From a virus, in IMG/VR virus record IMGVR_UViG_3300027609_000006, positions 1 to 58,096 of that record: a DNA stretch of 58,096 bases; one strand, 5' to 3'. The stretch's first letter is position 1; every line of letters begins with the position of its first letter. A program made the translations under genes and the position numbers. Under the pieces are notes generated by a model. It was not told the DNA's origin. It did not search any database and saw nothing but the letters and a program-made list of their open reading frames with translations. Positions 17,141-48,918 of this stretch are shown piece by piece.

Positions 17141-17824
17141 ATGAACACGGCGTACCATCCCGACTTCGGCGTCAAAGTGGCGTACCACTTCGACCGCATG
17201 TCCGAGGACCCGGACGCTCAGGTCCGTCAATCAGTTGCGAAGGCAATCTGCTACATTCGGCAGGACGCATCATCCGCCCCGATCCGCCAGGACGCCGCCC
17301 GCGCGGCCCAAGGAGGTGATCCGATCTCCGGGGTCTGGAAGCTTATCAAGCCGTCCATGAAGTTCAAGCAGGATGTCGACATCGCCCGCGAACTGGACGT
17401 AGACGATCCGCGTAAAGAGGACATCGTCGAGGTTTTCATCCGGCCTGTAGATCAGTCGATGCTGATTGGGTTGCGAGGCGTCGGGGTCGAGGACTGCGAC
17501 GGGTTCACGATGTACGGCGCGTGCCTGCTCACTGCGTTGGGGATTCCATGCGAGCTGGTCACGGTCGCAGCGGATGACAAGCGGCCTCGGGAGTACACGC
17601 ACATCTACGTTGCGGCTTATCCGAATGGACCGGGAACACATCCGAGAATTCCGCTTGATTTTTCACACGGTGAATATCCGGGCTGGGAATGTCCGTCAAC
17701 TCGATTGCGGGAATGGCCGGTGTATGAGACGGCGATGGAGAAGATTACTTTGGCCGCTACTCCTTTGGTCATTGCCGGTGCGGTTTATGGGTTGGTCCGG
17801 TGGATGAATGGGGGGAGCCGTTGA
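17141..17824 (+). CDS. Transglutaminase-like cysteine peptidase-fold protein, C-terminal TM
   Basis: EDCDGFTMYGACLLTALGIPCELV..THIYV..LDFSHG (Cys-His-Asp layout). Confidence 0.55.
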   Translation: MNTAYHPDFGVKVAYHFDRMSEDPDAQVRQSVAKAICYIRQDASSAPIRQDAARAAQGGDPISGVWKLIKPSMKFKQDVDIARELDVDDPRKEDIVEVFIRPVDQSMLIGLRGVGVEDCDGFTMYGACLLTALGIPCELVTVAADDKRPREYTHIYVAAYPNGPGTHPRIPLDFSHGEYPGWECPSTRLREWPVYETAMEKITLAATPLVIAGAVYGLVRWMNGGSR

Positions 17825-17969
17825 ATATTTTAGCCTCATCGAACATTTCCGCTTCGCCCGCGTCCGTGAGCGTTCGACCACGTCAGGTTTTATCGGGCAC
17901 CGGCCAAAAACCCCACCTGGTCGGGCGCTCACAAATCGACGGGGCAAAAAATCGGACGGAGGCCAAATC
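17825..17969 (+). repeat. Complete SAR hairpin (F-form plus R-form) filling the intergenic gap
   Basis: F: TTTTAGCCTCATCGAAC..GAGCGTTCGACCACGTCAGG. R: CCCCACCTGGTCGGGCGCTC..GACGGAGGCCAAATC. Open 50-codon micro-ORF 17821..17973 (TTGA overlap in, GTGA overlap out). Confidence 0.9.
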
Positions 17970-18719
17970 GTGAGCATCATAAATGTAGGATCAGAATACC
18001 CGCCAGGCTACACCGGAAACCCCTACAGCGCCCTGGACATCTCCGTGTTCTTCGATATGAACTGGCCGGATCATGCGGGAATCATGGCGCAAGGATCACC
18101 GGCTTATTCGTCAGGCCTCGGCAGATTGGGACAAGCCGGATGCGCTACCGCGACATGTGACGACTATGCAGATGATGGCGTCACATGTTTGGAATATGAC
18201 AATTCGAGTTGTACCAACGTTACGATCCCCGTTGCTGGCAACACGGCGGTTCCGATCCCCGCGGCGCCGGGATGTGCCACCAGCACTTGTATCGTAATGA
18301 ATCAAGGCGTTTGCACGGGTTACGACGATTCGAGTTGTTCGGCCTCGGTGAATGCAACGACCGCCGCGGCCCTCAATAATCAACTTATAGCTTCAGGGCT
18401 CCCTCAGACAGTGAATCTTAGCGCGACACAAACGGCGGCCCTCACCGCGAGCTTGACACCCGCTCAGCAAGCACAACTGATAGCCGCGGCGGGCAATTCC
18501 GCAGTCAGTCTCATTCGCACGGCTGAAGGTGGACCCTACACGGTCGCCGGAACGAACCTCGTTTACAATCCAGCCACCGGACAACTGACGACCGCCGCCG
18601 CGACGAATGCGACCGCAACCCTCACGGCCGGCCTCTCGGCAATTCAGCCCTACATTCCGATGATTCTACTTGCGGTCGCGGCCATCATCATAGTCCCGAT
18701 GATCACGGGTAAAAAATAA
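17970..18719 (+). CDS. Tail-anchored Cys/Thr/Ala-rich membrane protein
   Basis: GTG start after GGAGGCCAAATC. C-terminus IPMILLAVAAIIIVPMITGKK. Confidence 0.65.
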   Translation: MSIINVGSEYPPGYTGNPYSALDISVFFDMNWPDHAGIMAQGSPAYSSGLGRLGQAGCATATCDDYADDGVTCLEYDNSSCTNVTIPVAGNTAVPIPAAPGCATSTCIVMNQGVCTGYDDSSCSASVNATTAAALNNQLIASGLPQTVNLSATQTAALTASLTPAQQAQLIAAAGNSAVSLIRTAEGGPYTVAGTNLVYNPATGQLTTAAATNATATLTAGLSAIQPYIPMILLAVAAIIIVPMITGKK

Positions 18720-18955
18720 TGCGGGAACTCCGCGTCGTCAAAGTCACGCCAGGCAAATTGGTCGATGGCAGATTTGTGCCCAACCCGGAAAAGATCACGC
18801 GCGCCGGAAAAAAGGCGAAGCGCAAGAGACTGGCTGAGATGATCGCGGCGGCGAAGAACCCGGCATCGAAGAAACTGCCAACCGGGAAATTCGTCAAGGT
18901 CCATGCGATGCGCGTGAAGAAAAACGGGACGGTCGATGTGGTGGTGACTCGATGA
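18719..18955 (+). CDS. Small highly basic protein
   Basis: TAATG overlap with the upstream ORF. K/R-rich: KKAKRKRLAEMIAAAKNPASKK. Confidence 0.6.
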   Translation: MRELRVVKVTPGKLVDGRFVPNPEKITRAGKKAKRKRLAEMIAAAKNPASKKLPTGKFVKVHAMRVKKNGTVDVVVTR

Positions 18956-19725
18956 CCCCATACTGCCCCATCCCGCGAAATCCCGCGCACTACATCCCAC
19001 GGAATCCGTATGTCGATTGGGGTACGGGGATGGGGCAGGTGGTTCCCACATCGGTATCGACCGCAGCTTCAATCGCAGCGACCGGCATCACGACAACGAC
19101 CTCGATCTTGGGGGCGCTGGGTTCCACAATGACCGTCTTAGGATTGGCTCTGCCAGTCGTCGGAACGGCTATAGCCGCACTGGTGGCCATCGGAATTGCG
19201 GTTGCAAATCTATTCAAGGGTTGCGGAGTCACCTGCACCGAAGCGACGACGCTGGCGAATCAGGCGGACGGGATCATGGTCCAGAATGTGACCGCGTACA
19301 CGTCTTCGTCGATTCGCTACGTGTCGATGCAGCAGGCAGCGCTCAATACTTTCGACACGACCTGGGCAGCTTTGCAGCAGGCCTGTGGGCAGTCGGCGCT
19401 TGGAGCCGCCGGCCAGCGGTGCATCACGGATCGGCAGGAAGGCGCATGCACCTGGAAAGCATCGCAGGGAGGTTGGAATTCGGATGGAACCTACACCCCT
19501 TGGGGCGCGGCCGGCTCGGGAGATGTCTGCTGGAACTGGTTTGTCGGCATGCGTGATCCGATCGCGAATGATCCTTTCGTCCAACCGGACCCAACGTCTT
19601 CGAGTGTTGCATCTTCGTCTGTGGGATCGACGGCGGCGACATCAGGCACACCAGCGACTACGGCGACCGATTATTCCGGGTTGCTGATTGCGGCGGCTAT
19701 TGTTGCTGCGGTGGTGCTGCTGTGA
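18952..19725 (+). CDS. Membrane protein (central and C-terminal TM segments)
   Basis: ORF track, ATGA overlap with the upstream ORF. Confidence 0.7.
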   Translation: MTPYCPIPRNPAHYIPRNPYVDWGTGMGQVVPTSVSTAASIAATGITTTTSILGALGSTMTVLGLALPVVGTAIAALVAIGIAVANLFKGCGVTCTEATTLANQADGIMVQNVTAYTSSSIRYVSMQQAALNTFDTTWAALQQACGQSALGAAGQRCITDRQEGACTWKASQGGWNSDGTYTPWGAAGSGDVCWNWFVGMRDPIANDPFVQPDPTSSSVASSSVGSTAATSGTPATTATDYSGLLIAAAIVAAVVLL

Positions 19726-20024
19726 ATATTTTGGCCTCAGTTAGCATGTGGCTTGCGCGCCTCCTTTTGAGCGTTCGACCAGGAGGGGCCGTGGAGCTTC
19801 CCTGGCCAAACACCGCGACCTTCCGATTGTTCTTTGTTTCGAGAAAAGATCCGAAATGGGCGATGGTGGTTCACCAATTTCCCGACGGGACGATGTACGG
19901 GCTGGGTTGCAATATCCCTTTCGTGCAGTCGGCCGATTGGGATCTGAAATGGATCAAACGTCGCCCTGTCGAGGTTGCTCAATCCGAAGGCTCGGAAAAG
20001 CAGAGCGAGGCCAAACCATGCTAA
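19722..20024 (+). CDS. Cassette ORF between F and R arms (start uncertain)
   Basis: MNILAS..SVRPGG is F-arm translation and ..QSEAKPC is R-arm translation. Confidence 0.4.
   Translation: MNILASVSMWLARLLLSVRPGGAVELPWPNTATFRLFFVSRKDPKWAMVVHQFPDGTMYGLGCNIPFVQSADWDLKWIKRRPVEVAQSEGSEKQSEAKPC
19727..19788 (+). repeat. SAR arm, F-form
   Basis: TATTTTGGCCTCAGTTAGC..GAGCGTTCGACCAGGAGGGG. Confidence 0.9.
19962..20017 (+). repeat. SAR arm, R-form
   Basis: CGCCCTGTCGAGGTTGC..AGAGCGAGGCCAAACC, then ATG 20018. Confidence 0.85.
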
Positions 20025-20755
20025 TGGGAATGGGCCTCACCTGTCCCGAAGGTCAGCAGCCGACCAATACACCGAACGGAATGCAATGCTGCGGAGTGCC
20101 GGGCACCTCCTGCGAAGCAGATCCTTGCTCTTATTGCAATACCCCGCAGTACATCGCAACCCAGACCGCCGCTGCCGCCGCTGCGCTACAACCGGGAGGT
20201 GCCGGTCCGCTCGGAGCTTCGATTCTCGAATCCATCGCCAGCTATCCGCAAAATATCCAATCGGACGCGATCGACTGCGTGAGCAACCCAGGTTTGACCT
20301 TTACTGACGAAGAAGGAATTTCGGTCACCTGCCCGCAAGCCTACACGATGGACAATGGGATTCCGGTTTCGATTTACACTGCGGCGCAACTCGCGCAGAT
20401 GTTGTCTGCGGCAGCCACTCCAACCACGGAAACACCCATCAACGTAATCGGCACTTCCATTCCAGCCGCCGCAATCAATGTCACCACGCCGAATCTGCCA
20501 GCCGTCACGTCGGGAACTGTCGCTGCACCGGTTTCAACTACAGCCGCAGGATCGACCTCATCCAGTTCCCCATCGGGCAGTTCGTCAAGTTCATCCACTT
20601 CAACATCGGGCGCATCTTCGACTTCGGGAACTTCGACGCTTGATCTCTCGTTTCTGACGGACGATTCCCTGATTTCGGGAGTGCCTAACTGGGGCGTTGC
20701 GGTCGCAGCGATCGTGGCCTTGATGCTGCTGCCAAAACTGATCGGAGGCAGATAA
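20018..20755 (+). CDS. Tail-anchored Cys-rich, Ser/Thr-rich membrane protein
   Basis: N-terminus MLMGMGLTC, poly-Ser tract, C-terminus WGVAVAAIVALMLLPKLIGGR. Confidence 0.7.
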   Translation: MLMGMGLTCPEGQQPTNTPNGMQCCGVPGTSCEADPCSYCNTPQYIATQTAAAAAALQPGGAGPLGASILESIASYPQNIQSDAIDCVSNPGLTFTDEEGISVTCPQAYTMDNGIPVSIYTAAQLAQMLSAAATPTTETPINVIGTSIPAAAINVTTPNLPAVTSGTVAAPVSTTAAGSTSSSSPSGSSSSSSTSTSGASSTSGTSTLDLSFLTDDSLISGVPNWGVAVAAIVALMLLPKLIGGR

Positions 20756-20756
20756 A

Positions 20757-21236
20757 ATGGGGCTCGGACAATACGCAGGAGCCGCTTCGATCACGCTTTA
20801 TGACGGGACGGTTATTTCGGATCCCGCCAACACGCAGGCTACCCAAGCGCAATGCCTCCCATTCGAATGCGGAGTCGATCCGACCAATTCCGATGTCCGC
20901 TACTGGTGCGGATTCTGGGGACAAATCCAGACTCCTTCGTGCGTCGATCCGGAGTGCGCACCGTATCGGTCTGCGTCTCCCGGCTGTAATGTAGTCGCTC
21001 CCACGCCGCAGATTCCGAACCCGCCGCAACCCGCCGTTGCTCCGGTGATGCTGACGCCTCAGAATATCGTGCAGCCGATGCCGAATATCACGCAGGCGAA
21101 TGCGCCGGTACCGCTTCCGGTTTCCGATGGTTCGTGCTGGTGCGCAGTAAATCAGTGGATCGATCAGAATCCGATTCTTGCGGCTCTTGTTCTTGTGGGT
21201 TTTGGATTGGCTGTTTTGCCCGGGAGAAGCAGATGA
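20757..21236 (+). CDS. Tail-anchored Cys-rich membrane protein
   Basis: N-terminus MGLGQY, C-terminus PILAALVLVGFGLAVLPGRSR. Confidence 0.7.
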   Translation: MGLGQYAGAASITLYDGTVISDPANTQATQAQCLPFECGVDPTNSDVRYWCGFWGQIQTPSCVDPECAPYRSASPGCNVVAPTPQIPNPPQPAVAPVMLTPQNIVQPMPNITQANAPVPLPVSDGSCWCAVNQWIDQNPILAALVLVGFGLAVLPGRSR

Positions 21237-21240
21237 ACAA

Positions 21241-21387
21241 TATTTTGGCCTCATCGAACATCGATCTTCGCCCGCCTGTCCGCACGTTCGACCAGGATAA
21301 GTTGTTGGACTGCGCGGGTCCGAGCAACCACTCCTGGTCGGGCGCGTTCAATCCGCACGAAGCCTCAAATCCGACGGAGGCCAAATA
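21241..21387 (+). repeat. Complete SAR hairpin (F-form plus R-form)
   Basis: F: TATTTTGGCCTCATCGAAC..GCACGTTCGACCAGGA. R: CCACTCCTGGTCGGGCGCG..CCGACGGAGGCCAAATA. Micro-ORF 21233..21388, 51 aa (ATGA overlap in, TAATG overlap out). Confidence 0.95.
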
Positions 21388-22041
21388 ATGGACGAAGACA
21401 CCAAGCAATTAATCAAGTGGGGCGCCATCGGACTCGCGGGCTACTTCGTCTATCAGTGGCTCCAGAGCTCCGGCCTATGGGCGCAGTGGTTCGGAACGTC
21501 CACCGCTTCGAACTCGTTCAACACTTCGACCACCCTTCTCACCTACTGCCAGGCGAACCCCAACGGGACAGCGATTTACGTGGACCCCACGACGGGCGCG
21601 AGTTCGACCGCGACCTGTGCGCAATGGATCGCTTCGAATTCCAACGCCGCACTCCCGGTGACATCGGCCGCTTCCGGACTTGCCCCGAATTATCAGCAGG
21701 CAATTTCGCTGATGCAGCAAGCTGCCGGCAACGATTCGCAGACCGTCAATAACTGGTCCTACTATTGGCAGAACGGCACGATGTTCGATGGCGGGCCTCC
21801 TGGATTCGGAGTGCAGGGCTCAATTTCCCCGGCCCAGTTCAATCAGATTCTTGGATTGAACGCGAATGACGACACGGACCCGGTCACCTCAGAGCAATTC
21901 GTGGCGTGGCTCGTTCAAACCAGTTCCGATCCCAGCTCGGCTGGTGTAGCGACTCCCGCCGGCGTGATGGTGACCGGCGGAACTGGCGCGGGAATGCAGG
22001 GCTACGATTTCAATAGCGATTACAGCGGGTGGGTAAACTGA
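21388..22041 (+). CDS. Membrane protein (N-terminal TM)
   Basis: ORF track. N-terminus WGAIGLAGYFVYQWL. Confidence 0.7.
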   Translation: MDEDTKQLIKWGAIGLAGYFVYQWLQSSGLWAQWFGTSTASNSFNTSTTLLTYCQANPNGTAIYVDPTTGASSTATCAQWIASNSNAALPVTSAASGLAPNYQQAISLMQQAAGNDSQTVNNWSYYWQNGTMFDGGPPGFGVQGSISPAQFNQILGLNANDDTDPVTSEQFVAWLVQTSSDPSSAGVATPAGVMVTGGTGAGMQGYDFNSDYSGWVN

Positions 22042-22646
22042 TGGCGAAAGACGATTACACTTCGATCATTGCTCTCGCCGCAATCGGCGGGATCGCGTGG
22101 TACGGCTATGAACAGGGCTGGTTTTCCAGCCTGTTCGGAACTGCGGCAGCGGCGACCACTGGAACGCCGGCAGCCGCGATCAATTGTCCGTCTCCAAATA
22201 CGCTGGTTGCCGGCGTCTGTACCGCGCCAGTGACGTGCCCATCTCCGAACACAATTATCAACGGAGTATGCACCGCTCCCGTAGTGGCCGCAGCCGGCGG
22301 TTCGTCATCGACTACAGTGGCTCCGCAGGCGATCCCGACGGCCAGCGTCAGCGTCACCGATCAACCGTGGTATGACCAGGTCGCCGCGCTGGCATCGACC
22401 AATTCGCTCGATATGGACCAATGGGATTATTACTACAACCAGATTTTCTCCAGTGCCCCGATCACCGGAACGCAGGTCAACGCGATGCTCGCGGCGCTTA
22501 CCAATCTGGGCCAGACGCGAAGTACGCCGATGACGATGCCGCAGTGGTATTGGCTGCTGACGGCGGGCGGCGGGGGAGTCAGCGGACTGGGCATGTTTGG
22601 AAATTATTTTGGAATCCCGGCTAGCGCGATTCATGGAGGGTGGTAG
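22041..22646 (+). CDS. Membrane protein (N-terminal TM)
   Basis: TGATG overlap with the upstream ORF. Contains IIALAAIGGIAWYGY and repeated CPSPNT..GVCTAPV. Confidence 0.7.
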   Translation: MAKDDYTSIIALAAIGGIAWYGYEQGWFSSLFGTAAAATTGTPAAAINCPSPNTLVAGVCTAPVTCPSPNTIINGVCTAPVVAAAGGSSSTTVAPQAIPTASVSVTDQPWYDQVAALASTNSLDMDQWDYYYNQIFSSAPITGTQVNAMLAALTNLGQTRSTPMTMPQWYWLLTAGGGGVSGLGMFGNYFGIPASAIHGGW

Positions 22647-23171
22647 ATGCTGGTAGGACTCGCCCAAACCACGCCAATTCCGGTTCCGCTGACAACTAGC
22701 GGGGAAACTCTCGCTCAATCGTGCGCGGCGGAACTCGCGGCCAGTGGCGGGCAACCATTGGCGACCAATCCCTATATCCTAAACATGGCACTCGAAGGCA
22801 GTGGGATGGAAGGTCAGAATTTGACGGGATGCCCTCCGGGATACACACTGACGCAGGCGGGTCCGCCGAACGTGAATCAGCCATGCGGATATTACCAATG
22901 CCTGAATGCCGCTGGTCAAAACGTCTCGACGGCCGTCGTTGGTCCAGGGTCCACAAATCCATGTACGGGCTTTAAGGCAATCCCCACAGAGTCGTGGGTT
23001 ATCGGTGGTGCCGGACTGGTCATGTTCCTTTTGTTGGGAGGATGGCTCAAGATTCTCGCGATTCCGGTAGTTGGTTTCGCTGTGCTGAACGTGGCGCTGA
23101 CGAATCTCGGCCCGCAGGTGAATTTGCAAACCGGGCAGATCGAATGCGTGGCACAAGGATTGGAGATGTGA
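22647..23171 (+). CDS. Membrane protein
   Basis: N-terminus MLVGLAQT, two C-terminal TM segments. Confidence 0.7.
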   Translation: MLVGLAQTTPIPVPLTTSGETLAQSCAAELAASGGQPLATNPYILNMALEGSGMEGQNLTGCPPGYTLTQAGPPNVNQPCGYYQCLNAAGQNVSTAVVGPGSTNPCTGFKAIPTESWVIGGAGLVMFLLLGGWLKILAIPVVGFAVLNVALTNLGPQVNLQTGQIECVAQGLEM

Positions 23172-23329
23172 TGGGCGATCTTTCAAGCTGCTACTCCTGG
23201 GAAGCGACCTTCTCACCCCAAGTGTCTTGCGGAACTTCAAACCTGACCCAGAGCGTTTGTCCAGATGCGACGTGGTTTTGGGTGATCGCGGCCGGTATCA
23301 GCTTGGTTGCCATTTTTAAAAAGAAGTGA
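23171..23329 (+). CDS. Small tail-anchored membrane protein
   Basis: TGATG overlap with the upstream ORF. C-terminus WFWVIAAGISLVAIFKKK. Confidence 0.5.
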   Translation: MGDLSSCYSWEATFSPQVSCGTSNLTQSVCPDATWFWVIAAGISLVAIFKKK

Positions 23330-23727
23330 TGATCACAGCACAACATCTCGGAATGGGAAGCGTAACGCGCCTGACGTGTGCCTTCAATCGCAACCGCGGC
23401 GTGATGCTGGCAACCAGGGTGCGAACCGCCGAAACCTTTTCCGATCGCTGTATCGGGCTCTTGGAGCGCGATCATTTCCGGGTGGGCGAAGGCCTTCACA
23501 TCGTGCCGTGCTCCTCCATTCACACCGTCGGTATGAAATTCTCGATCGATGTTGCGTTTCTGGACGAAAATGGCGTGGTGCTCGAAACCTTCAAAGATTT
23601 GCAGCCGGGCCATCGCCGCATCGAATGTTTTAACGCGGTCTCCGCACTGGAATTGCCGTGTTGTGTATTGCGCGCGACCGGAACGCAGCCGGGTGACATT
23701 CTCGAATTCGCGGAGGTCTCATGCTGA
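23329..23727 (+). CDS. DUF192-like protein
   Basis: GLL..GEGLHIVPCSSIHTVGMKFSIDVAFLDENGVV is the DUF192 pattern. Confidence 0.6.
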   Translation: MITAQHLGMGSVTRLTCAFNRNRGVMLATRVRTAETFSDRCIGLLERDHFRVGEGLHIVPCSSIHTVGMKFSIDVAFLDENGVVLETFKDLQPGHRRIECFNAVSALELPCCVLRATGTQPGDILEFAEVSC

Positions 23728-24035
23728 TCGGAATGGGCCAAACCTGCGCGGACGGCACGGCATATGTTGCGAATTTCGGTTGTGACGATGGCAGCACCCC
23801 GACTTGCCCATCTGGATATACGCTGAGCACAGCTTCCGGGCAATATAGTTGCGTCAGCAGTTCAGGTGCAGCTCCGCTGATTGGCGTCACGGCACCAACT
23901 GCAACAACATCCACTTGTCCGGTTGGTTCGACCTGTTCAATAGTCGCGGGAATCTCGAACACGAATATCTATCTGGCCGTAGGCGCCGTTGTCTCGATGT
24001 TCTTGTTGGCATCGGTATTCGGGGGCAAAAGATGA
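23721..24035 (+). CDS. Tail-anchored Cys-rich membrane protein
   Basis: N-terminus MLIGMGQTC, C-terminus IYLAVGAVVSMFLLASVFGGKR. Confidence 0.65.
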   Translation: MLIGMGQTCADGTAYVANFGCDDGSTPTCPSGYTLSTASGQYSCVSSSGAAPLIGVTAPTATTSTCPVGSTCSIVAGISNTNIYLAVGAVVSMFLLASVFGGKR

Positions 24036-24445
24036 CGCCTTACGACATCTTGCAAGTCTCTCACTCCGCGCCGCAAGAAGTGATCCGCGCCGCGTGGTCC
24101 GCGCTCATCCGCCAGTGCCATCCGGACAGCCCGCATGCCGACGAAAAGCGAACGCGCCATTTGAACGAAGCTTACGCGATCCTGAAGGATCCGAAGAAAC
24201 GCGCGGCGCTTGATGCGCACATCAAGGCACGCGCGCAAAGTGGAAGGGAACGGGTTCGCCAGGCGGCACGATCCACCGCGCCCGATCCGCACTCGGCGGA
24301 AATGGCCTATCCACAAGCATATGAGGGATTCTCTCCGGAACGCATCGACGAAGCGATTGAGGAACTGACGCGCGCCGCGGGAGCGCCTCCGATCGTCGGA
24401 GAGTTCATGCAGTTTCTTCACCAGCAAGCGAGGAAAAAGAAATGA
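24032..24445 (+). CDS. J-domain (DnaJ-like) protein
   Basis: TPYDILQVS..AWSALIRQCHPD..LNEAYAILKDPKKRAALD, with the HPD motif. Confidence 0.85.
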   Translation: MTPYDILQVSHSAPQEVIRAAWSALIRQCHPDSPHADEKRTRHLNEAYAILKDPKKRAALDAHIKARAQSGRERVRQAARSTAPDPHSAEMAYPQAYEGFSPERIDEAIEELTRAAGAPPIVGEFMQFLHQQARKKK

Positions 24446-25041
24446 GTCTGATCGGTCTGTCGGCACTCGCCCAAGCATGTTCCTCATCGCTGAGTCCCAG
24501 CAACTGTGGCACAGCCGGCGGAAGTTACGACGGAGACAACGAAGTGTGCGTGTGTGCTGCGGACAGCAGCGGTTTCACCTTGGCACAGCAGCAAGCCCTA
24601 TGTACCTCGGCGGGCGCTGATACGACTTGGGATGCCACAACGAACACATGCGTTCCAATTGGCTCGGCACCCGCGCCAGCTAGTAGTGGCGCATCGTGTC
24701 CAAACAACACGCTCCCGGGCACGCCATCGGATGTGAATTGCCCATGGTGGTGCAACTTCATCGCGTTTCAATCTACTTCCTGTACCCCGTGTACGCAGGT
24801 CTGCCCCACCGGAATGCAATGGGACACCACGAATAATGTGTGCTCGGCGAATCCGGCGTCCAACAATTGCAGCGGTGCCGGAACGGGATCGCCCTGTCCG
24901 AGTTATTGCAACGTTCCTTTGATCGGCGGGTTATTTTCGGCCTGTGCGCCATGCGCCGGGAACACGAGCGCCAGTTCAATCCTTGCCGCATTGGGAGCGG
25001 TTGCCGTTCTCTACCTTGGATACAAGTTGGTGAAAAAATGA
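24442..25041 (+). CDS. Tail-anchored Cys-rich membrane protein
   Basis: Many CxxC-type Cys residues. C-terminus ILAALGAVAVLYLGYKLVKK. Confidence 0.7.
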   Translation: MSLIGLSALAQACSSSLSPSNCGTAGGSYDGDNEVCVCAADSSGFTLAQQQALCTSAGADTTWDATTNTCVPIGSAPAPASSGASCPNNTLPGTPSDVNCPWWCNFIAFQSTSCTPCTQVCPTGMQWDTTNNVCSANPASNNCSGAGTGSPCPSYCNVPLIGGLFSACAPCAGNTSASSILAALGAVAVLYLGYKLVKK

Positions 25042-25355
25042 TCATCTCGGAGCCGATGACATACGGTCTTGGAGACCTAGGCCAGCTCACGATTTCGAGC
25101 GATGTCACGCAGTGGGGATTCGGACAATGGACCGCCGTGATCGTCGGTTCGTATCTGGCTTACAAGTTGATTCTGGACACGAAAACTGTGGGCGGGAAAG
25201 CTTTGAAACACACGAAAAAGGCCCGGCGTAAGATCGCAAAGGCGGCGGTGGGTAACACGAGTAAAATTGGCACGGTCGTAACGGTGGGAGCTCTCGCGGC
25301 AGCCGGTTTTGTGGCTTACGAAGCCTATTCCCAATCTCAGGCGGTGACGCAATGA
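25038..25355 (+). CDS. Membrane protein
   Basis: ATGA overlap with the upstream ORF. Contains GLGDLGQLT and one TM segment. Confidence 0.6.
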   Translation: MIISEPMTYGLGDLGQLTISSDVTQWGFGQWTAVIVGSYLAYKLILDTKTVGGKALKHTKKARRKIAKAAVGNTSKIGTVVTVGALAAAGFVAYEAYSQSQAVTQ

Positions 25356-25365
25356 AAGGATTTTT

Positions 25366-25836
25366 ATGCTACTAGGAATGAATTCTCTGCGCGATTTCGT
25401 ACCGGCGAAGGTGGTTCCCGGATCGCTTCTGACGACAGGAATGAGCGGCCGCCGGGGTGTGGCGGATTTCGTCAACGGCCAGGTGGTGCCCGGCTATTTG
25501 CTTTCAACAGGCATGAGCGCGTTGACTCCCAGCTCTCCCACCGGAATGACGATCCCAAACAATTCAGTCATGACCGCGTGGCAGGGTGCCGGGATGTCGG
25601 GGTGTGACGACGGGTGCGGGTGCGGGGGCAAATGTGGCGGCGGTGGAGGATGCGGCTCGGGCATGGGTCAGTTGTCCCTCAGCTCGATCACGGCTCCGTT
25701 CTCGCAGGCATGGACCGACATTCAGGCCGCGATTTCGGCGGGGTCCATCACTCCTTTGACGGGTGAAGATTGGTTAGTGATTGCTGGTACTGCCGCTGCT
25801 GCGTGGTGGATGTTCGGGAAGAAGGGGAGACGGTAG
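25366..25836 (+). CDS. Tail-anchored Gly/Cys-rich membrane protein
   Basis: N-terminus MLLGMNS, repeated VVPG.LL.TGMS, GCGCGGKCGGGGGCG, C-terminal TM. Confidence 0.65.
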   Translation: MLLGMNSLRDFVPAKVVPGSLLTTGMSGRRGVADFVNGQVVPGYLLSTGMSALTPSSPTGMTIPNNSVMTAWQGAGMSGCDDGCGCGGKCGGGGGCGSGMGQLSLSSITAPFSQAWTDIQAAISAGSITPLTGEDWLVIAGTAAAAWWMFGKKGRR

Positions 25837-25847
25837 GAATTCTTTTT

Positions 25848-25904
25848 ATGTCGGCCTGGCCGCACATTTCGGAGACGCGAACATTGGATGCTCGACGGGG
25901 CAGG
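25848..25904 (+). repeat. SAR arm, F-form, degenerate
   Basis: ATGTCGGCCTGGCCGC..GATGCTCGACGGGGCAGG. The upstream TAGGAATTCTTTTTATGTCGGCC resembles the junction at 46230. Confidence 0.5.
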
Positions 25905-26324
25905 ATCATCCGACACTTCGGAACCCTCATGACTAATCTCCATATCATCGCGACCGATCGCGCCGGGAACATTTGGGATTGCGGCCCCACCCCGAGTCAC
26001 GATTGGGCAAAGGTGCGCGCGAGTCTCGAATCTTCCGTTGGTACGCCATTCTTCGGAATGCCAGGAAAGACGCCATTGCGAAAAGGTTGGCATCCGGAGT
26101 ATGACGAAATTGTGGGACGGACAGAACACGGCTTAGATATCCCGCGAATCACCCTTGAAACGGTTTTCAATGATTGGGACACGCTCAATCGAGATCACGG
26201 CGCTGGAACTTTCGAATCTGTTGCAAACTTCGATGAGATGGCGGTTTTAAAAGTCGCTCTCGAAGCCTATAAGCACCTCCTGGTCGAACGCGAAAAAGGG
26301 CGCGCGAAGAGGGGTGTGCAATGA
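25848..26324 (+). CDS. Hypothetical protein (between F and R arms)
   Basis: ORF 25770..26324 trimmed to ATG 25848. Confidence 0.55.
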   Translation: MSAWPHISETRTLDARRGRIIRHFGTLMTNLHIIATDRAGNIWDCGPTPSHDWAKVRASLESSVGTPFFGMPGKTPLRKGWHPEYDEIVGRTEHGLDIPRITLETVFNDWDTLNRDHGAGTFESVANFDEMAVLKVALEAYKHLLVEREKGRAKRGVQ

Positions 26325-26333
26325 GGCCAAAAC
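26274..26333 (+). repeat. SAR arm, R-form
   Basis: CACCTCCTGGTCGAACGCG..GTGCAATGAGGCCAAAAC. ATG 26321 lies inside the arm terminus. Confidence 0.8.
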
Positions 26334-27079
26334 ATAATCCCGCCAAATTCGACCGTTGCGTAAAGGACGTGAAGCGTTCCAAATCCGCCCGTAGCGCCTA
26401 CGCTATCTGCACAGCAGCCGGAACCCGCAACCCCGGTACCGGAGCCATGGTCGCCTCAGCACTCAGCCACTCCGCCGCCGGCCGCAAAGCACAAGTTGCG
26501 ATTAAAAAGCTTTTCTCGAAGGCAAAGAACCCGCAGGACGCCTCTGAGCAGATGTTCGAAATCTTCCACGGCATGGCGCCGAATGAAATCCTGCACATCG
26601 TGGAGCGCGTTCACGTGCACGCGAACCTGTGGACGGCCGGCACACTCACATCAATGGTGATCCAAACAGAGTATGGCTATCAGTTCGATTTAAACGCGCC
26701 GGACCCGGACACCGCGAAGCCGAAGGATGTGGTGTACGTCACCTTCAACGAAGCCGGAAACCAGATCTACTTCCGCGGCGGCAATCAGGAAATCCCGAGA
26801 TCGTGGCTCGAAAAAGCCGGGCTCAAATCCGACGACTTCCGGGAGCACATGATTATCGGCGCGGTGGTCGAACTGACATACCGGACGAAAAAGAAATTCG
26901 AGAAGGGCGGAAAAGAACTAGTGGACTTCTATCACGGCTTGGGAAAAGAGCACTCGCGCGGAGTTTTGCCGATGCTGGTTTACAAGCCGCGTGATCCGAG
27001 CATGGCGCTCTACGGAGGGCGATATAAAGTGTTGCCCAAGAGGGCGGATTTGGGCGCGAGTCCGGGAATCGGCGGATGA
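26321..27079 (+). CDS. Hypothetical (possibly virion) protein
   Basis: NPAKFDRCVKDVKRS..SAYAICTAAG. Confidence 0.7.
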   Translation: MRPKHNPAKFDRCVKDVKRSKSARSAYAICTAAGTRNPGTGAMVASALSHSAAGRKAQVAIKKLFSKAKNPQDASEQMFEIFHGMAPNEILHIVERVHVHANLWTAGTLTSMVIQTEYGYQFDLNAPDPDTAKPKDVVYVTFNEAGNQIYFRGGNQEIPRSWLEKAGLKSDDFREHMIIGAVVELTYRTKKKFEKGGKELVDFYHGLGKEHSRGVLPMLVYKPRDPSMALYGGRYKVLPKRADLGASPGIGG

Positions 27080-27282
27080 GAATGATGCATTTCAAGTACT
27101 GGGACAACGGAACGCCGTGGCGCAATTTCAACGAGAGAAAGCTACTGTTCGAAGTGGCGGCAGAGAATATTTTCAAAGCCGATGAATGCTACCAGAGAGC
27201 GACGGGCGATGATCCTACCAAACAACCGTACGTCGGCAGGGAAATACGATTGATGGAGAATGGGGAGGCGCGGGACTGCTGA
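27076..27282 (+). CDS. Hypothetical protein
   Basis: ORF track, ATGA overlap with the upstream ORF. Confidence 0.55.
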   Translation: MRMMHFKYWDNGTPWRNFNERKLLFEVAAENIFKADECYQRATGDDPTKQPYVGREIRLMENGEARDC

Positions 27283-27536
27283 TGAACGAACTGATTCAGT
27301 ACGCGCAAACGGTGCCTTACTTCCCCGCGAACTCGTGCGCATGGGGACACGCTGCGCTTGGGTTCGGAACGAGCATCTACCTCACGGATCCGTGGGCGCA
27401 AGCCGCCGCCGCGGTGGCGTTCATTATGTACGAGGTTTGGCGCGAGAAGCCCACCAATGAAAAGGTCGGAGCGGTCGCCGAGTTTGCAACGGGATATTTA
27501 GCGGGAAAGGTTGTCGGGGGGATGAATACGAAATGA
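27282..27536 (+). CDS. Small membrane protein
   Basis: ORF track. C-terminus GYLAGKVVGGMNTK is duplicated at 27800..27843. Confidence 0.6.
   Translation: MNELIQYAQTVPYFPANSCAWGHAALGFGTSIYLTDPWAQAAAAVAFIMYEVWREKPTNEKVGAVAEFATGYLAGKVVGGMNTK
27493..27536 (+). repeat. Gene-end duplication, copy 1 (about 31/43 nt versus 27800..27843)
   Basis: Both copies encode YLAGKVVGGM..K followed by an ATGA junction. Confidence 0.65.
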
Positions 27537-27844
27537 ATAATGTTTTGGCCTCATCGGGCGTTGAGACACGTAAAGCGCAGAACGTTCGACAGTCGAAGTG
27601 CCTGCATTGCCCCAATGAGGCGGTGGATGGCTCGATTTTCTGTCAAGTTCACATCGACATTGATGCAGCATTCCACCTTCGCATCAGAGAAGGCCGGAAG
27701 CAGTGCGCGATATGGCCGGGCGCAGGGATGCTGCAATGCGCTTGGCCCACGTGCGGATGTCCTTCCGATGTGGAACAGGCACGAAGGCAGGCGGAATCCT
27801 TATATCTGGCAGGCAAGGTAGTTGGAGGGATGAGCAGCAAATGA
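27533..27844 (+). CDS. Cassette ORF, Cys/His-rich protein
   Basis: MNNVLAS is F-arm translation. Contains CLHCPNEAVDGSIFCQVH. Ends with a duplicate of the upstream gene's C-terminus. Confidence 0.5.
   Translation: MNNVLASSGVETRKAQNVRQSKCLHCPNEAVDGSIFCQVHIDIDAAFHLRIREGRKQCAIWPGAGMLQCAWPTCGCPSDVEQARRQAESLYLAGKVVGGMSSK
27541..27598 (+). repeat. SAR arm, F-form
   Basis: TGTTTTGGCCTCATCGGGCG..GAACGTTCGACAGTCGAAG. Confidence 0.85.
27800..27843 (+). repeat. Gene-end duplication, copy 2
   Basis: See 27493..27536. Confidence 0.65.
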
Positions 27845-28053
27845 ATGAGCGGATGTTGAAATACACGCTGAAGGAAGCGGAGACGGGAATTCGGATGATG
27901 GCGCGCAACAAATCCCCGATGCACTTCTTTGACTGGGGAACCGACACCGCCGGAACAAAGCATGTATTTGTAATGGCAATCCTGCCCGAGGATGCCGTAG
28001 CTGCCTTCGAATCGCAAATGAACCCGTCAGAACCGGTGGAGTCCAACGCATGA
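27841..28053 (+). CDS. Hypothetical protein
   Basis: ATGA overlap with the upstream ORF. N-terminus MNERMLKYTLKEAE. Confidence 0.55.
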   Translation: MNERMLKYTLKEAETGIRMMARNKSPMHFFDWGTDTAGTKHVFVMAILPEDAVAAFESQMNPSEPVESNA

Positions 28054-29177
28054 ACTTCATCTTCCTGAGCGTTCCAACATTCGAGCCGTGGGACTGGACC
28101 AACCCGGATACCGTGGGAATCGGCGGCTCCGAAACCTCGCACATCGAGATGAGCAACCGGCTCTCAGACCGCGGCCACAGCGTCTATTCGTACGGCCCCA
28201 CGCCGTTCAAGGAGCCGACCGTCAACCCGCACGGCGTGACCTGGGAGCGCTGCGACAACGATCAGAATATCTGGCGCCGCGAGGGCGTCTGGGTCATCTA
28301 TCGCGATCCGCAGTCTATTGACGATGTGCACCCGGACCAACCTGCATGGTTGATCTGCCAGGATGTGGATTATCCGCAGCTCACTGAGGAGCGCGCCCGC
28401 AAGTTCACCCGCATCGTGACCCTCTGCGAAACACACGCGTTCTATATGCGCCTTCGCTTTCCGCATCTCGCGGATCGGATTTGCGTTTCGTCGAATGGCA
28501 TCAAGTCGGAGCTAATCGAAGCTGCGCTGAAGAATCCGCCCACGCGCAACCCCAAGCGGCTGATGTACGCATCGAGCCCCGACCGGGGACTGATCCACCT
28601 AGCGACGGTTTTCAGCCGGGCGCGCGAAGTGATCTCCGATCTGGAATTACACGTGTACTACGGCTTCAATAATATCGACAAGGTCGTAGAGAAAAGCCAG
28701 CACGTCCGCAGAATCACGAACGACATCCGCCGGCAGCTCGACCAGCCGGGCATCGAGTGGCACGGCCGCACCGCGCAACCGGAGTTGATTCAGGAGTGGC
28801 TCAAGGCGGGCATCTGGTGCCACCCATCGAGCTTTACGGAAACCTCCTGCATCACCTGCATGGACGCGCAGGCGCTGGGGGCGATCCCGATCACAACTCC
28901 CACCTGGGCCATCGGCGACAACGTCAAGCACGGCGTGTTCATCGAAGGCGATCCGTACAACGATAATCTGACGCGGGCGCGGTACACGCTGGAGTTGATC
29001 CGCCTCGCGAGCGATGAAAAACGGCAGGCCGAAATTCGCGCGGAGATGATGCCCTGGGCGCAAGGCTTTTTCGGCTGGGAGAAGTTCGTGGACCAGTGGG
29101 AAGAGTGGGCGCGGGAAGATCTGAGCCAATCCCAGATTCGGCTTGTCCCGCGAGTCCTTCAGGAGGCAGTGGCGTGA
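28050..29177 (+). CDS. Glycosyltransferase, GT-B (group 1/GT4-like)
   Basis: GIGGSETSHIEMSNRLSDRGHSV and a C-terminal E..E region (FTETSCITCMDAQALGAIPI). Confidence 0.7.
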   Translation: MNFIFLSVPTFEPWDWTNPDTVGIGGSETSHIEMSNRLSDRGHSVYSYGPTPFKEPTVNPHGVTWERCDNDQNIWRREGVWVIYRDPQSIDDVHPDQPAWLICQDVDYPQLTEERARKFTRIVTLCETHAFYMRLRFPHLADRICVSSNGIKSELIEAALKNPPTRNPKRLMYASSPDRGLIHLATVFSRAREVISDLELHVYYGFNNIDKVVEKSQHVRRITNDIRRQLDQPGIEWHGRTAQPELIQEWLKAGIWCHPSSFTETSCITCMDAQALGAIPITTPTWAIGDNVKHGVFIEGDPYNDNLTRARYTLELIRLASDEKRQAEIRAEMMPWAQGFFGWEKFVDQWEEWAREDLSQSQIRLVPRVLQEAVA

Positions 29178-31055: not shown

Positions 31056-31201
31056 ATGTCGGCCTCAGTCAAATCCGGTCTGCGCATCAACGCTCTATCG
31101 TTCGGCCAGGAGAGGGTTTCGCCCTTCGCGGGTCCAAAACACTTCTCCTGGTCGGGCGCTCCGGAACCAACCGAAGCCACTCCGTCGAAGGAGGCCAAAA
31201 C
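31056..31201 (+). repeat. Complete SAR hairpin (F-form plus R-form)
   Basis: F: ATGTCGGCCTCAGTC..ATCGTTCGGCCAGGAGAGG. R: CTTCTCCTGGTCGGGCGCTC..GAAGGAGGCCAAAAC. Micro-ORF 31056..31220, 54 aa. Confidence 0.9.
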
Positions 31202-31357
31202 ATGTTCATCACCCGAGTAACGAAGGTCGTCAATCCGCATCATGCATCTGCTCACCGGAGCAGGTCCGTAGCGGAATCAGGGGGAAGTCCGTCTTTCTCG
31301 AACCCAGCGGCTCACATGCTGACGCTGGGATTTATCAATCCCAAAGGGAGGGTCTTA

Positions 31358-46230: not shown

Positions 46231-46242
46231 AAAAATTCCTCC

Positions 46243-48312: not shown

Positions 48313-48328
48313 GGGGTGTATTTTACAT

Positions 48329-48389: not shown

Positions 48390-48396
48390 TTTGCGG

Positions 48397-48903: not shown

Positions 48904-48918
48904 AGATGATCTATGAAT

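Follow-up and report, generated by a model that had tools for sequence, protein, structure and literature searches.

Genes and repeat elements of the membrane-protein block

A block of membrane-protein genes lies at 17141–25836 on the + strand of the window, by which is meant the whole stretch of 58,096 nucleotides that was analysed, and it opens a 21-kb rightward late operon. Hydrophobic segments were found in the products of 13 of its 16 credible genes, which are named here by their start positions. The preliminary description had delimited the block at 17970–25836 with at least 13 consecutive membrane-protein genes; the existence of the block holds, with its start moved further left, and with soluble proteins interspersed (18719, 78 aa and basic; 23326, DUF192; 24032, J-domain; and 25848) and two open reading frames falling within repeats. 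The features are:

17141–17824, + strand: first block gene, 227-aa protein, C-terminal transmembrane (TM) segment, tail ...GLVRWMNGGSR (Kyte-Doolittle)
17824–17972, unstranded: inverted repeat pair, fold -59.6 kcal/mol, z = -4.2
17970–18719, + strand: 249-aa tail-anchored protein, GTG start, end ...IIIVPMITGKK
18719–18955, + strand: 78-aa soluble, strongly basic protein (from its sequence)
18952–19725, + strand: 257-aa membrane protein, C-terminal TM segment without basic tail, internal hydrophobic stretch at about residues 51–95
19725–20021, unstranded: inverted repeat pair containing ORF 19722–20024
20018–20755, + strand: 245-aa tail-anchored protein, N-terminus MLMGMG, 8 Cys, Ser/Thr-rich linker, end ...LLPKLIGGR
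20757–21236, + strand: 159-aa tail-anchored protein, end ...AVLPGRSR
21238–21391, unstranded: inverted repeat pair, fold -63.3 kcal/mol, z = -5.2, containing the 51-aa ORF 21233–21388
21388–22646, + strand: two proteins of 217 and 201 aa (21388, 22041) with Thr/Ser/Ala-rich bodies
22647–23329, + strand: 174-aa protein and 52-aa tail-anchored protein (23171, end ...VAIFKKK)
23326–23727, + strand: soluble DUF192 protein (PF02643, precomputed Pfam), LGMG motif near the N-terminus
23721–24035, + strand: 104-aa tail-anchored protein, N-terminus MLIGMG, 6 Cys, end ...ASVFGGKR
24032–24445, + strand: J-domain (DnaJ) protein with HPD motif (Pfam PF00226)
24442–25355, + strand: 199-aa tail-anchored protein (24442, 18 Cys, end ...LGYKLVKK) and 105-aa protein (25038)
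25366–25836, + strand: 156-aa protein, weak C-terminal TM segment, tail KKGRR, Cys/Gly cluster

All proteins that had been listed for the block were reproduced by ORF calling and translation. Hydrophobic segments were called by a Kyte-Doolittle scan with a threshold, the same rule being applied to PRD1 and P23-77, and the scan agrees with the C-terminal segment and Lys/Arg tail previously assigned to 17970, 20018, 20757, 23171, 23721, 24442 and 25366, the segment of the last being weaker. The hydrophobic end of 18952 without a basic tail was likewise seen, together with the extra internal stretch. The two C-terminal TM segments ascribed to 22647 appear as a single long hydrophobic segment near the C-terminus (residues 116–152 or 116–155), which we read as two adjacent spans. 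N-terminal anchors on 21388 and 22041 are plausible, as their N-terminal stretches are moderately hydrophobic, though below the threshold, and 25038 has two hydrophobic segments in place of the single internal one formerly described.

A C-terminal TM segment followed by a tail with 1–4 Lys/Arg is carried by 9–10 of the 16 block genes versus 4 of about 91 elsewhere in the genome (Fisher p 2e-6 to 2e-7). The N-domains are acidic, Cys-rich and nearly devoid of Lys/Arg; in 8 of 9 proteins the 15 residues preceding the TM segment contain none, and the tails contain 1–4. The 17970 protein, for instance, has 8 Cys, a Thr/Ala-rich composition and an N-domain net charge of -11, and such Thr/Ala- or Ser/Thr-rich examples are in accord with the Cys/Thr/Ser/Ala-rich ectodomains noted earlier. 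No signal peptide was detected by the Kyte-Doolittle scan on the N-domains of the tail-anchored block proteins. The overlapping gene junctions also proved real, 14 of the 22 between 17141 and 29177 being overlaps of 1, 4 or 7 nt.

Five relatives of 50–62 kb (L018, L019, L035, L036 and L037) carry a syntenic block, with orthologues at 37–83% identity (BLASTP), and the anchor, tail and Cys counts are kept in all five even at about 40% ectodomain identity. The 17141 protein, among the most conserved of the block (82% identity to L018, 68% to L019), gave no Pfam, PHROG, NCBIfam or PDB match. The 18952 protein is 77–82% identical to its L018 and L019 counterparts by tblastn (79–80% by BLASTP), the 17970 orthologues in the same two genomes share its anchor and tail at 40–44% identity, and an alignment of the 20757 family shows six Cys unchanged in five genomes. 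The J-domain gene sits within the block in all related genomes examined. No paralogy was found among the block proteins, suggesting that their shared design was selected and not inherited through duplication. An N-terminal motif (M-x-x-G-x-G) is common to several block proteins in all genomes, and 25366, with two DFVxxxVVPGxLL motifs at its N-terminus, shares a DFV..VP motif with the basic membrane protein 31202 further downstream. Judged by eye, a 314-aa protein opens with a similar DFV..VP motif.

A 50-nt dispersed repeat occurs as inverted pairs at three block sites (17824–17969, 19722–20024 and 21233–21388). In the predicted RNA fold, the hairpin at 17824–17972 pairs the ribosome-binding site GGAGGCCAAA of gene 17970. 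ORF 19722–20024 has no orthologue match in the related genomes, and the translation of ORF 21233–21388 matches several places in L018 and L008 in the manner of a DNA repeat; both lie inside repeat elements, are probably not coding and were set aside as genes.

Genome context, candidate capsid proteins and ATPase

The window represents one complete circular genome, 57,997 bp long, with an identical 99 nt at both ends, and permuted contigs of equal length found in several assemblies support a circular and complete element. This 58-kb circular element comes from soil. About 85% of its genes are without a family assignment (Pfam, PHROGs, NCBIfam and precomputed Pfam). A bacterial host is indicated by the lytic transglycosylase, a GH25 lysozyme in L036, the J-domain protein and Shine-Dalgarno-type sites. 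The features of interest beyond the block are:

26321–27079, + strand: 252-aa highly conserved protein (alignment)
31202–31891, + strand: 229-aa protein, basic N-terminal region, hydrophobic segments, one C-terminal GDFVxGxVVPG motif
31948–32646, + strand: 232-aa protein, the lineage's most conserved, 92% identity to L018
33285–33740, + strand: 151-aa predicted single jelly-roll protein (AF2 pLDDT 82, pTM 0.73)
37227–38378, + strand: 383-aa protein, N-terminal jelly roll, variable middle, conserved C-terminal part
39072–40133, - strand: HerA/FtsK-superfamily ATPase (Pfam DUF87, PHROG 2666, PDB HerA)

The 26321 protein is probably structural; it has no PDB or Pfam match, and in relatives a long basic N-terminal extension is fused to its homologue. 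For the 232-aa protein, 211 homologues and 402 clusters were found, and its model of an N-terminal helix and a beta-sandwich (pLDDT 62) gave only weak Foldseek matches of jelly-roll type; a role in the capsid or the core is possible. Among the Lys/Arg-rich small proteins, 18719 (no family match in the profile search) is from its composition a candidate DNA-binding or core protein; together with the similarly rich 33036 and the basic-plus-TM protein 31202, which may connect DNA with membrane and capsid, it would fit a DNA-membrane core.

The fold of the 151-aa protein is predicted confidently as a jelly roll. Foldseek places it next to the capsid proteins of SPV1, SH1, HHIV-2 and CCMV, the best by TM-score being those of the membrane-containing SPV1, SH1 and HHIV-2, with E-values of only about 6e-3 and TM-scores of 0.43–0.48. 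Jelly rolls are also found in lectins and fibres. Homology to this jelly roll extends to the N-domain of the 383-aa protein (hhalign probability 87–91%, E about 1e-6). The conserved C-terminal part of the latter is weakly similar to its own N-part, and it may be a double jelly roll. The model of the smaller protein makes it a candidate penton or small capsid protein, and the larger might be a capsid or vertex protein of double jelly-roll type; the genes of about 380 and 150 aa are adjacent in L035 and L036.

The ATPase resembles tectivirus packaging ATPases at the sequence level (BLASTP: phiKo gp14, 2e-13; PRD1 P9, 7e-6; about 210 residues aligned) and is a candidate genome-packaging enzyme. 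It is encoded about 13 kb away from the block on the opposite strand. A relative in a Mesorhizobium prophage-like region adjoins a RecE-like exonuclease and an integrase, and since the family thus occurs in prophage recombination modules, the ATPase may instead be a recombination or replication enzyme.

The preliminary description had judged the locus unlike a tailed phage, a view that an HK97 capsid, a portal, a terminase or a tail protein would refute. None was found among the proteins of at least 230 aa with Pfam, PHROGs and NCBIfam, a search which also drew on precomputed Pfam matches covering about 90% of the genome.

Topology and role of the block proteins

The reading that we favour, at somewhat better than an even chance, is a new lineage of large tailless viruses with jelly-roll capsid proteins, in which the block specifies the membrane proteome of the virion. 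The earlier proposal of a lipid-membrane virus gains support from the jelly-roll proteins and the tectivirus-like ATPase, and from these genes we infer that a lipid membrane is probably part of the virion. The block proteins, which lack a signal peptide, would be synthesised in the cytoplasm, and the single C-terminal TM segment would lead to post-translational membrane insertion, with the block's J-domain protein recruiting host DnaK and thereby keeping the tail-anchored proteins insertion-competent. Targeting of Escherichia coli tail-anchored proteins is aided by DnaK/DnaJ (PMC6794478). The Lys/Arg tails would lie on one bilayer face, that of the DNA-facing lumen, and the acidic, Cys-rich and Thr/Ser-rich N-domains on the opposite face, towards the protein shell, where the N-terminal G-x-G(-D) and [GA]DFV..VP motifs may act as docking peptides tying membrane proteins to the shell. 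This topology, the roles of DnaK and the motifs, and the part of the jelly-roll proteins in the capsid are proposals. Counting against the favoured reading, known membrane-containing phages have mostly N-terminally anchored, Cys-poor proteins, and the 232-aa most conserved protein gave a low-confidence model with no convincing match.

A further objection is that the positive-inside rule puts basic C-tails in the cytoplasm and consequently the N-domains outside, contradicting a simple tail-anchor topology. In the corresponding type-I-like arrangement, which we consider unlikely, the proteins would be external-envelope spikes or infected-cell surface proteins, possibly glycosylated by the glycosyltransferases encoded downstream and exported through an unrecognised N-terminal signal such as M-x-x-G-x-G. 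Acidic N-domains with basic residues only C-terminal to the TM segment match that rule; the mostly even Cys counts, the six invariant Cys of the 20757 family and the Ser/Thr/Pro-rich linkers look extracytoplasmic; the same operon encodes, at 28–31 kb, a methyltransferase and glycosyltransferases of GT1/GT4-like and GT2 type; and the common N-terminal motif is found in all genomes. However, the block proteins have no hydrophobic N-terminal signal of the kind detected elsewhere in the genome on a GH43 protein (44972–45931) and the 689-aa protein, and domains of 100–230 residues would require post-translational export before the C-terminal anchor, for which we know of no bacterial route. There was also no match to C-terminal sorting-signal models among the block proteins, and jelly-roll shell proteins favour an icosahedral shell over a pleomorphic envelope. 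Small phage membrane proteins often serve in superinfection exclusion, lysis timing or assembly and replication sites, and the block proteins might accordingly remodel the host cytoplasmic membrane in such a way and be no part of the virion. The distance of about 6 kb from the block to the putative capsid genes downstream, with the glycosyltransferase genes between, is in line with this, as is the separate location of the C-terminally anchored lytic transglycosylase (56450–57058). Yet at least 10 such proteins in fixed order and translationally coupled exceed the needs of exclusion or lysis, they share a long operon with capsid-like genes and are conserved across divergent relatives, and the DFV..VP motif joins 25366 to the membrane protein adjoining the most conserved structural gene; we regard such a role as distinctly unlikely.

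That the genome belongs to a tailed phage so divergent that profiles missed its hallmark genes, the block being an accessory membrane module, seems very improbable to us. With some 85% of the genes lacking a family, absent hallmark matches are weak evidence; the IMG/VR relatives are labelled only as viral contigs, and the closest phage-database match of the ATPase is a 'HerA helicase' of a terminase- and portal-bearing tailed phage. Nevertheless, the sole proteins of terminase length, of 526 and 689 aa, show no ATPase or nuclease signature (one has the N-terminal signal and 13 Cys, the other a Gln/Pro-rich low-complexity region), the genome has no gene of tape-measure size, and the conserved structural cluster is made of jelly-roll proteins. 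We give hardly any credence to a plasmid or conjugative element in which the block would form a transfer machinery in the membrane, powered by the FtsK/HerA-like ATPase after the manner of TraB-type DNA transfer. The circular molecule, the 21-nt iterons at 10842–11025, the encoded resolvase, PIN protein, RHH protein and DNA methyltransferase, and the weak TrwB and FtsK Pfam matches of the ATPase would suit it. Against it, relaxase, VirB4 and pilin families were not detected with Pfam and PHROGs, the jelly-roll proteins have viral capsid neighbours, Lys/Arg-rich core-like proteins are encoded, lysozyme or transglycosylase genes are present within the family, and hundreds of metagenomic relatives show a narrow range of genome size and a very highly conserved structural cluster.

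Comparison with known systems

The preliminary description had likened the locus to PRD1, PM2 and sphaerolipovirus-like groups. The likeness holds in so far as the late operons of PRD1 and P23-77 encode 14–16 small membrane proteins (16 in PRD1 by the same rule); in anchor polarity, size and Cys content the block proteins depart from all of these groups. With Tectiviridae (PRD1, Bam35 and Thermus phage phiKo; Bamfordvirae) the genome shares an ATPase that aligns across the Walker A and B region with phiKo gp14 and PRD1 P9, a candidate pair of (double?) and single jelly-roll proteins of about 380 and 150 aa, a late operon rich in small membrane proteins and a lytic transglycosylase. Tectiviruses, however, are linear, of 11–15 kb, with a terminal protein and protein-primed polymerase, neither of which was detected in this circular genome of about 58 kb; the ATPase gene is here apart from the capsid genes, and the capsid-like proteins do not resemble P3, P31 or the phiKo MCP in sequence. 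The PRD1 membrane proteins, of 27–265 aa, are mostly N-terminally anchored and Cys-poor, whereas the anchors here are C-terminal, behind acidic, Cys-rich N-domains of about 30–230 residues.

The sphaerolipovirus-like viruses (Helvetiavirae: P23-77, SH1, HHIV-2 and HCIV-1) are defined by a core of two MCPs, a major membrane protein and a HerA/FtsK-like ATPase (PMC5332951). SH1 and HHIV-2 capsid chains are structurally near the 151-aa protein. P23-77 likewise has a circular genome, and the arrangement of its VP16/VP17 is like that of the two homologous jelly-roll proteins, one small and one larger, from neighbouring genes. The present genome is 2–3 times larger, its ATPase matches P23-77 ORF13 at Walker A only, its larger protein may have two jelly rolls and not one plus a tower, and, of 14 proteins from the P23-77 late region in which the same rule finds a hydrophobic segment, 9 have it at the N-terminus. 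The 151-aa jelly roll reached its highest TM-score with Sulfolobus polyhedral virus 1 (SPV1; Portogloboviridae; 6oj0_A, TMq 0.48), which also has a circular dsDNA genome. In the SPV1 core, lipid encloses a nucleoprotein made with basic proteins, a type which the several Lys/Arg-rich proteins here would fit. SPV1 is, however, a 20-kb archaeal virus, the host here being judged bacterial, and to our knowledge it has no packaging ATPase.

The E. coli tail-anchored proteins DjlC, Flk and SciP/TssL resemble the block proteins in their single C-terminal TM segment and lack of a signal peptide, and biogenesis of bacterial tail-anchored proteins involves DnaK/DnaJ, SRP and YidC (PMC6794478), to which the J-domain protein of the block forms a parallel. 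The cellular proteins are encoded by scattered single genes, unlike the at least 9 clustered in one viral operon here with Cys-rich and strongly acidic N-domains, whose insertion by such a route is a proposal. Overall, the window probably represents an undescribed, unusually large, membrane-containing bacterial virus.

Circular genome and tailed-phage hallmarks

The window is the complete circular genome of 57,997 bp, since its 99-nt ends (1-99 and 57998-58096) are identical and represent the assembly overlap of a circular molecule, 58.1-kb contigs starting at permuted positions were recovered in several independent soil assemblies, and a JGI contig of 116 kb is a dimer. At the sensitivity of profile HMMs, no match to a large terminase, portal or HK97-fold capsid was obtained from Pfam, PHROGs or NCBIfam among the proteins of at least 230 aa, and the same hallmarks were absent from the precomputed Pfam annotation covering ~90% of the genome. 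No significant family was found for tail genes (tape measure, tube, baseplate), Baseplate_J and PhageMin_Tail reaching E ~0.1, far below cut-offs; the sole PHROG matches labelled 'tail' or 'tape measure' fall on the lytic-transglycosylase domain of 56450-57058. The preliminary description had proposed a lipid-membrane virus and named HK97 capsid, portal, terminase and tail proteins as the findings that would speak against it; none was detected by these profile searches, and a divergent tailed phage is regarded as a less likely reading of the genome.

Several further features of the genome were recorded:

10842-11025, tandem array of about eight iterons of 21 nt (TCGGCAGAATCTCCCGGTAC), lying inside or beside genes 10681-11079 and 11076-11957; iterons and adjoining genes are a candidate replication origin and initiator
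44972-50076 (-), leftward operon encoding a GH43-like protein with signal peptide, a subtilisin-like (S8) peptidase and a protein of 689 aa that has 13 Cys and a hydrophobic segment at its N-terminus; the products may be enzymes that are secreted or associated with the virion, or the S8 peptidase may act as a protease in maturation
51158-51324, four 42-nt repeats in tandem, located within the gene for a D12-class adenine methyltransferase (50684-51712)
57120-57194 (-), tRNA-Thr (CGT), the only tRNA gene of the genome

Architecture and conservation of the membrane-protein block

A 21-kb rightward operon carries the membrane-protein block at its start and a cluster of very conserved genes at its end. 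The block spans 17141-25836 (+), beginning at 17141 and not at 17970 as was earlier supposed, and is a run of short genes mostly overlapping by 1, 4 or 7 nt, overlaps of this kind being found at 14 of the 22 junctions from 17141 to 29177. By Kyte-Doolittle scan, a single C-terminal hydrophobic segment is present in the products of genes 17141, 17970, 18952, 20018, 20757, 23171, 23721, 24442 and 25038 (genes are named by start coordinate), and a weaker one in that of 25366. Such anchors occur in 9-10 of the 16 block genes vs 4 of the ~91 in the rest of the genome (Fisher p 2e-6 to 2e-7), an enrichment that confirms the membrane-protein block of the preliminary description. In eight block proteins 1-4 Lys/Arg, without any acidic residue, come after the segment, while Lys/Arg are absent from the 15 residues preceding it in eight of nine proteins. 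The net charge of the N-domains lies between -1 and -14, Ser/Thr linkers are present, and Cys counts range from 3 to 18 and are mostly even. The run of membrane-protein genes is interspersed with soluble products:

18719 (+), 78-aa basic protein
23326 (+), DUF192 protein
24032 (+), J-domain protein with HPD motif
25848, soluble protein

Synteny of the block was observed in five related sequences, the last three being more distant:

L008 and L018, IMG/VR contig of 59.9 kb (IMGVR_UViG_3300043811_000165)
L019, a second IMG/VR contig
L035, NCBI MAG contig of 54.8 kb
L036, Logan contig of 50.4 kb
L037, JGI contig of 61.6 kb

Block orthologues share 37-83% identity by BLASTP, and the C-terminal anchor, basic tail and Cys counts are kept despite divergence of the ectodomains; the 20757 family retains six invariant Cys in five genomes, and the J-domain gene lies inside the block in all related genomes compared. 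All-against-all BLASTP of the block proteins returned one marginal pair only, which rules out a paralogous expansion and indicates that the common architecture reflects shared constraint and not recent duplication. Apart from DUF192 and DnaJ, the block proteins have no family match in Pfam, PHROG or NCBIfam, and no nucleotide similarity of the block to known phages was found. A transglutaminase-like fold considered for the 17141 protein from a C..H..D pattern seen by eye had no Pfam, NCBIfam or PDB support.

No N-terminal signal peptide was found on the C-terminally anchored block proteins, whose N-terminal peptides are too short and too polar for the purpose; two proteins elsewhere in the genome do carry one. 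With reference to C-terminal sorting signals (LPXTG, PEP-CTERM, GlyGly-CTERM and similar), no NCBIfam model matched ten block proteins, no common motif precedes their TM segments, and no sortase or exosortase gene is listed in the precomputed Pfam annotations of the genome. Sortase/PEP-CTERM-type signals and lipoprotein lipoboxes were dropped, there being no model match and no conserved motif.

The block has gaps at 17824-17972, 19725-20021 and 21238-21391, and an inverted pair of one dispersed element occupies each of them. This element, TG(G)TCGAACGC..CGAAG..GAGGCCAAA, is of fixed length (49-53 nt) and has 40 sites genome-wide on both strands and none in shuffled sequence; examples are 17918-17967(+), 21335-21385(+), 26281-26331(+), 31149-31199(+) and 45934-45983(-). 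The element usually stops 2-3 nt ahead of a start codon, so that its last 9 nt would serve as ribosome-binding site, and it could be a promoter or leader. The inverted pairs are predicted to fold into long RBS-sequestering hairpins (z -4.2 and -5.2). ORFs 19722-20024 and 21233-21388, formerly listed as genes, each lie inside such a pair and are probably not genes: the first has no orthologue match, and the second, once translated, matches related DNA at several places, the behaviour expected of a repeat. The element is apparently repeated in L018/L008 as well, where the translation of the ORF inside one copy matches several places.

Jelly-roll proteins and a putative packaging ATPase

Four further genes were considered in detail:

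26321-27079 (+), very conserved 252-aa protein
31948-32646 (+), 232-aa protein
33285-33740 (+), 151-aa protein
37227-38378 (+), 383-aa protein

The 151-aa protein yielded a confident eight-stranded jelly-roll model (pLDDT 82, pTM 0.73), whose best neighbours by TM-score are capsid chains of SPV1 (0.48), SH1 (0.44), HHIV-2 (0.43/0.47) and CCMV/BMV, with Foldseek probabilities of at least 0.96 but E-values of only ~6e-3; it has no sequence similarity to PRD1 P31. The N-terminal 130 residues of the 383-aa protein are homologous to it (hhalign probability 87-91%, E ~1e-6), and a jelly roll is predicted for this part from the model of its 151-aa homologue. The C-terminal part bears a weak likeness to the N-terminal part, in sensible register, one alignment giving a probability of 60-70% and another 22%, and the protein as a whole may have two jelly rolls; comparison with PRD1 P3 and the phiKo MCP showed no sequence similarity. 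Homologues keep both terminal parts and vary in the middle, giving short (~275 aa), standard (~380 aa) and long (610-670 aa) forms within an overall range of 275-670 aa. A Pfam FG-GAP_2 domain is present in two long homologues, P0143 (652 aa) and the 547-aa gene 12883-14526 of L037, and one genome holds two paralogues of 376 and 652 aa. This variation points to a domain that faces outward and can be swapped, perhaps serving in host recognition. Homology of the 163-aa and 314-aa proteins to the 151-aa jelly roll was considered and not supported.

In L035 and L036 the genes for proteins of 232 aa, ~155 aa and ~386 aa are all adjacent in this order. The 232-aa protein is 92% identical to its L018 counterpart and has 211 close homologues and, at 50% identity, 402 clusters, the contigs being mostly of 45-63 kb. 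The model obtained for it is poor (pLDDT 62), Foldseek gave just weak HA-head, C1q and SH1 matches by which it is not a recognisable capsid protein, its profile matched nothing in PDB or PHROG even with 70 diverse members, and hhalign found it unrelated to the other jelly-roll families. The 252-aa protein ends in ...GGRYK..P...L...SPGI.G, matches no known family and found no relative in the genome-collection scan; in relatives its counterpart forms the C-terminal domain of proteins of 494-583 aa, which have long N-terminal extensions rich in Lys/Arg (L035 5237-6721; L036 5266-7017; L037 2418-4043). Bar DUF192 and DnaJ, the structural and block families are absent from PHROGs, Pfam and the PDB sequence set.

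The genome encodes a single P-loop ATPase of the right kind, at 39072-40133 (-), which belongs to the HerA/FtsK superfamily and matches Pfam DUF87 and PHROG 2666, the family in which tectivirus ATPases carry the annotation 'terminase large subunit'. In the phage database its best match is one uncultured-phage HerA, followed by the tectivirus packaging ATPases of phiKo (E 2e-6), phiG2, GIL16c and Bam35. Pairwise BLASTP aligned ~210 residues, including Walker A and B, with phiKo gp14 (2e-13) and with PRD1 P9 (7e-6), while with P23-77 ORF13 Walker A alone aligns (E 4e-4, 33 aa). It also matches the HerA structure 4D2I at 9e-6, the template used for the SH1 and HHIV-2 ATPases (PMC5332951). By sequence comparison, the protein is placed in the FtsK/HerA packaging-ATPase family, its packaging role being putative. 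Close relatives were detected by genome-collection scan in prophage-like regions of Mesorhizobium and other bacteria, the rest of which is unshared with the window; in Mesorhizobium the relative adjoins a RecE-like exonuclease and an integrase. A separate 123-aa gene at 40454-40825 (-) is a second copy of the ATPase's N-terminal part with Walker A, with a 299-nt direct repeat of 79% identity to 39829-40127.

Affinities, topology and proposed assembly

Scanned with the same hydrophobicity rule as the window, the late regions of PRD1 and P23-77 contain 16 and 14 small proteins with a hydrophobic segment. A dense membrane-gene block is therefore a shared trait, in agreement with the earlier claim that such blocks are typical of lipid-containing viruses. 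The anchor is N-terminal in 12 of the 16 PRD1 and 9 of the 14 P23-77 proteins, which are mostly very short and usually have 0-2 Cys, and the C-terminal anchors of the window on long, acidic, Cys-rich domains are accordingly a distinctive variant.

With Bamfordvirae/Tectiliviricetes (PRD1-like) the window shares the FtsK/HerA packaging-ATPase family, its packaging function being putative; the eight-stranded 151-aa jelly roll with viral capsid neighbours may be a counterpart of the single jelly-roll penton, and the abundance of membrane proteins in the late operon would be in keeping with an internal lipid membrane. Helvetiavirae have small and large vertical single jelly-roll MCPs side by side. 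The 151-aa protein is homologous to the 383-aa protein, the two being neighbours in L035 and L036, and has SH1 and HHIV-2 chains among its best Foldseek matches; the 383-aa protein may instead be a double barrel, and of the Helvetiavirae ATPase clade (P23-77 ORF13, SH1 ORF17) ORF13 aligns at Walker A alone. Membership of the Tectiviridae or the sphaerolipovirus group is not established. Among cultured dsDNA viruses of bacteria, the tailless ones with a membrane are not known to have genomes outside ~10-20 kb, and databases hold few of them; no description of viruses such as these was found in the literature searched. Viruses that combine jelly-roll proteins, a HerA/FtsK ATPase and numerous membrane proteins are a known kind; that the element is a plasmid is considered less likely. 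New features are a genome 3-5 times the size of known bacterial examples, its circularity and iterons, a membrane proteome of tail-anchored, Cys-rich proteins, a J-protein encoded within the block, and peptide motifs common to several proteins.

One motif, [GA]DFVxGxFxVPQNP, occurs in two to three copies in the 25366 family and once in the family of 31202, a 229-aa basic membrane protein (31202-31891, +), the form in the window being DFVxxxVVPGxLL. A related RG[IL][GA]DIVP, noted by eye, opens the 314-aa protein, and many tail-anchored proteins start with a truncated form (MLMGMG, MLIGMG, MRIGMG, MRVGIGALGD or MFGLGD). The recurrence of the motif supports a putative link of the membrane proteins to the shell. 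In the 25366 and 31202 families, motif and basic segment lie at opposite polypeptide ends with the hydrophobic segment(s) between, which would fit a model in which the basic segments face the DNA and the motifs face the shell; the Lys/Arg-rich proteins 18719 and 33036 and the 31202 N-terminus would likewise fit a condensed DNA core. The adjacent small proteins 27282-27536 and 27533-27844 share the C-terminal end YLAGKVVGGM(N/S)(T/S)K, which resembles the GGKVVPGG motif of the 31202 protein and might be a processing or docking site.

A serious rival is that the block proteins are type-I-like and face outward, as an external envelope or a cell-surface display. By the positive-inside rule their basic C-tails would be cytoplasmic, the even Cys counts and the Ser/Thr linkers have an extracytoplasmic look, and downstream of the block lie glycosyltransferase genes; however, no export signal is visible. 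The block proteins may also not be virion components. In the assembly route we propose, they would be made without signal peptides and inserted post-translationally via the C-terminal segment, the J-protein of the block would recruit host DnaK, and the membrane patch bearing them would be incorporated into the particle. In E. coli, DnaK/DnaJ support the targeting of tail-anchored proteins (PMC6794478).

Overall, we put forward, tentatively and with more doubt than confidence, a joint reading in which these genomes represent a new lineage of jelly-roll viruses of bacteria, widely distributed (400 or more protein clusters at 50% identity, contigs mostly 45-63 kb, genomes 3-5 times those of any known tailless dsDNA phage). 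The virion membrane would carry post-translationally inserted, tail-anchored, disulfide- or metal-stabilised proteins, chaperoned by the viral J-protein with host DnaK and clamped to the shell by G-x-[GA]-D-F/I-V-P docking peptides. If true, the multi-protein machineries that large eukaryotic DNA viruses use for membrane entry and assembly would have a bacterial counterpart here. Since the families have no PHROGs, Pfam or PDB-sequence match, marker-based annotation would be unable to classify such genomes. With a 58-kb lineage that is common in soil metagenomes, the known range of genome size and gene content among tailless membrane viruses of bacteria would become much wider. The lineage would also give a model for how a virus selects its own proteins and inserts them into the membrane patch that ends up in the particle, a design whose C-terminal anchor with basic tail, acidic Cys-rich N-domain, block J-protein and short motifs suggest testable steps.
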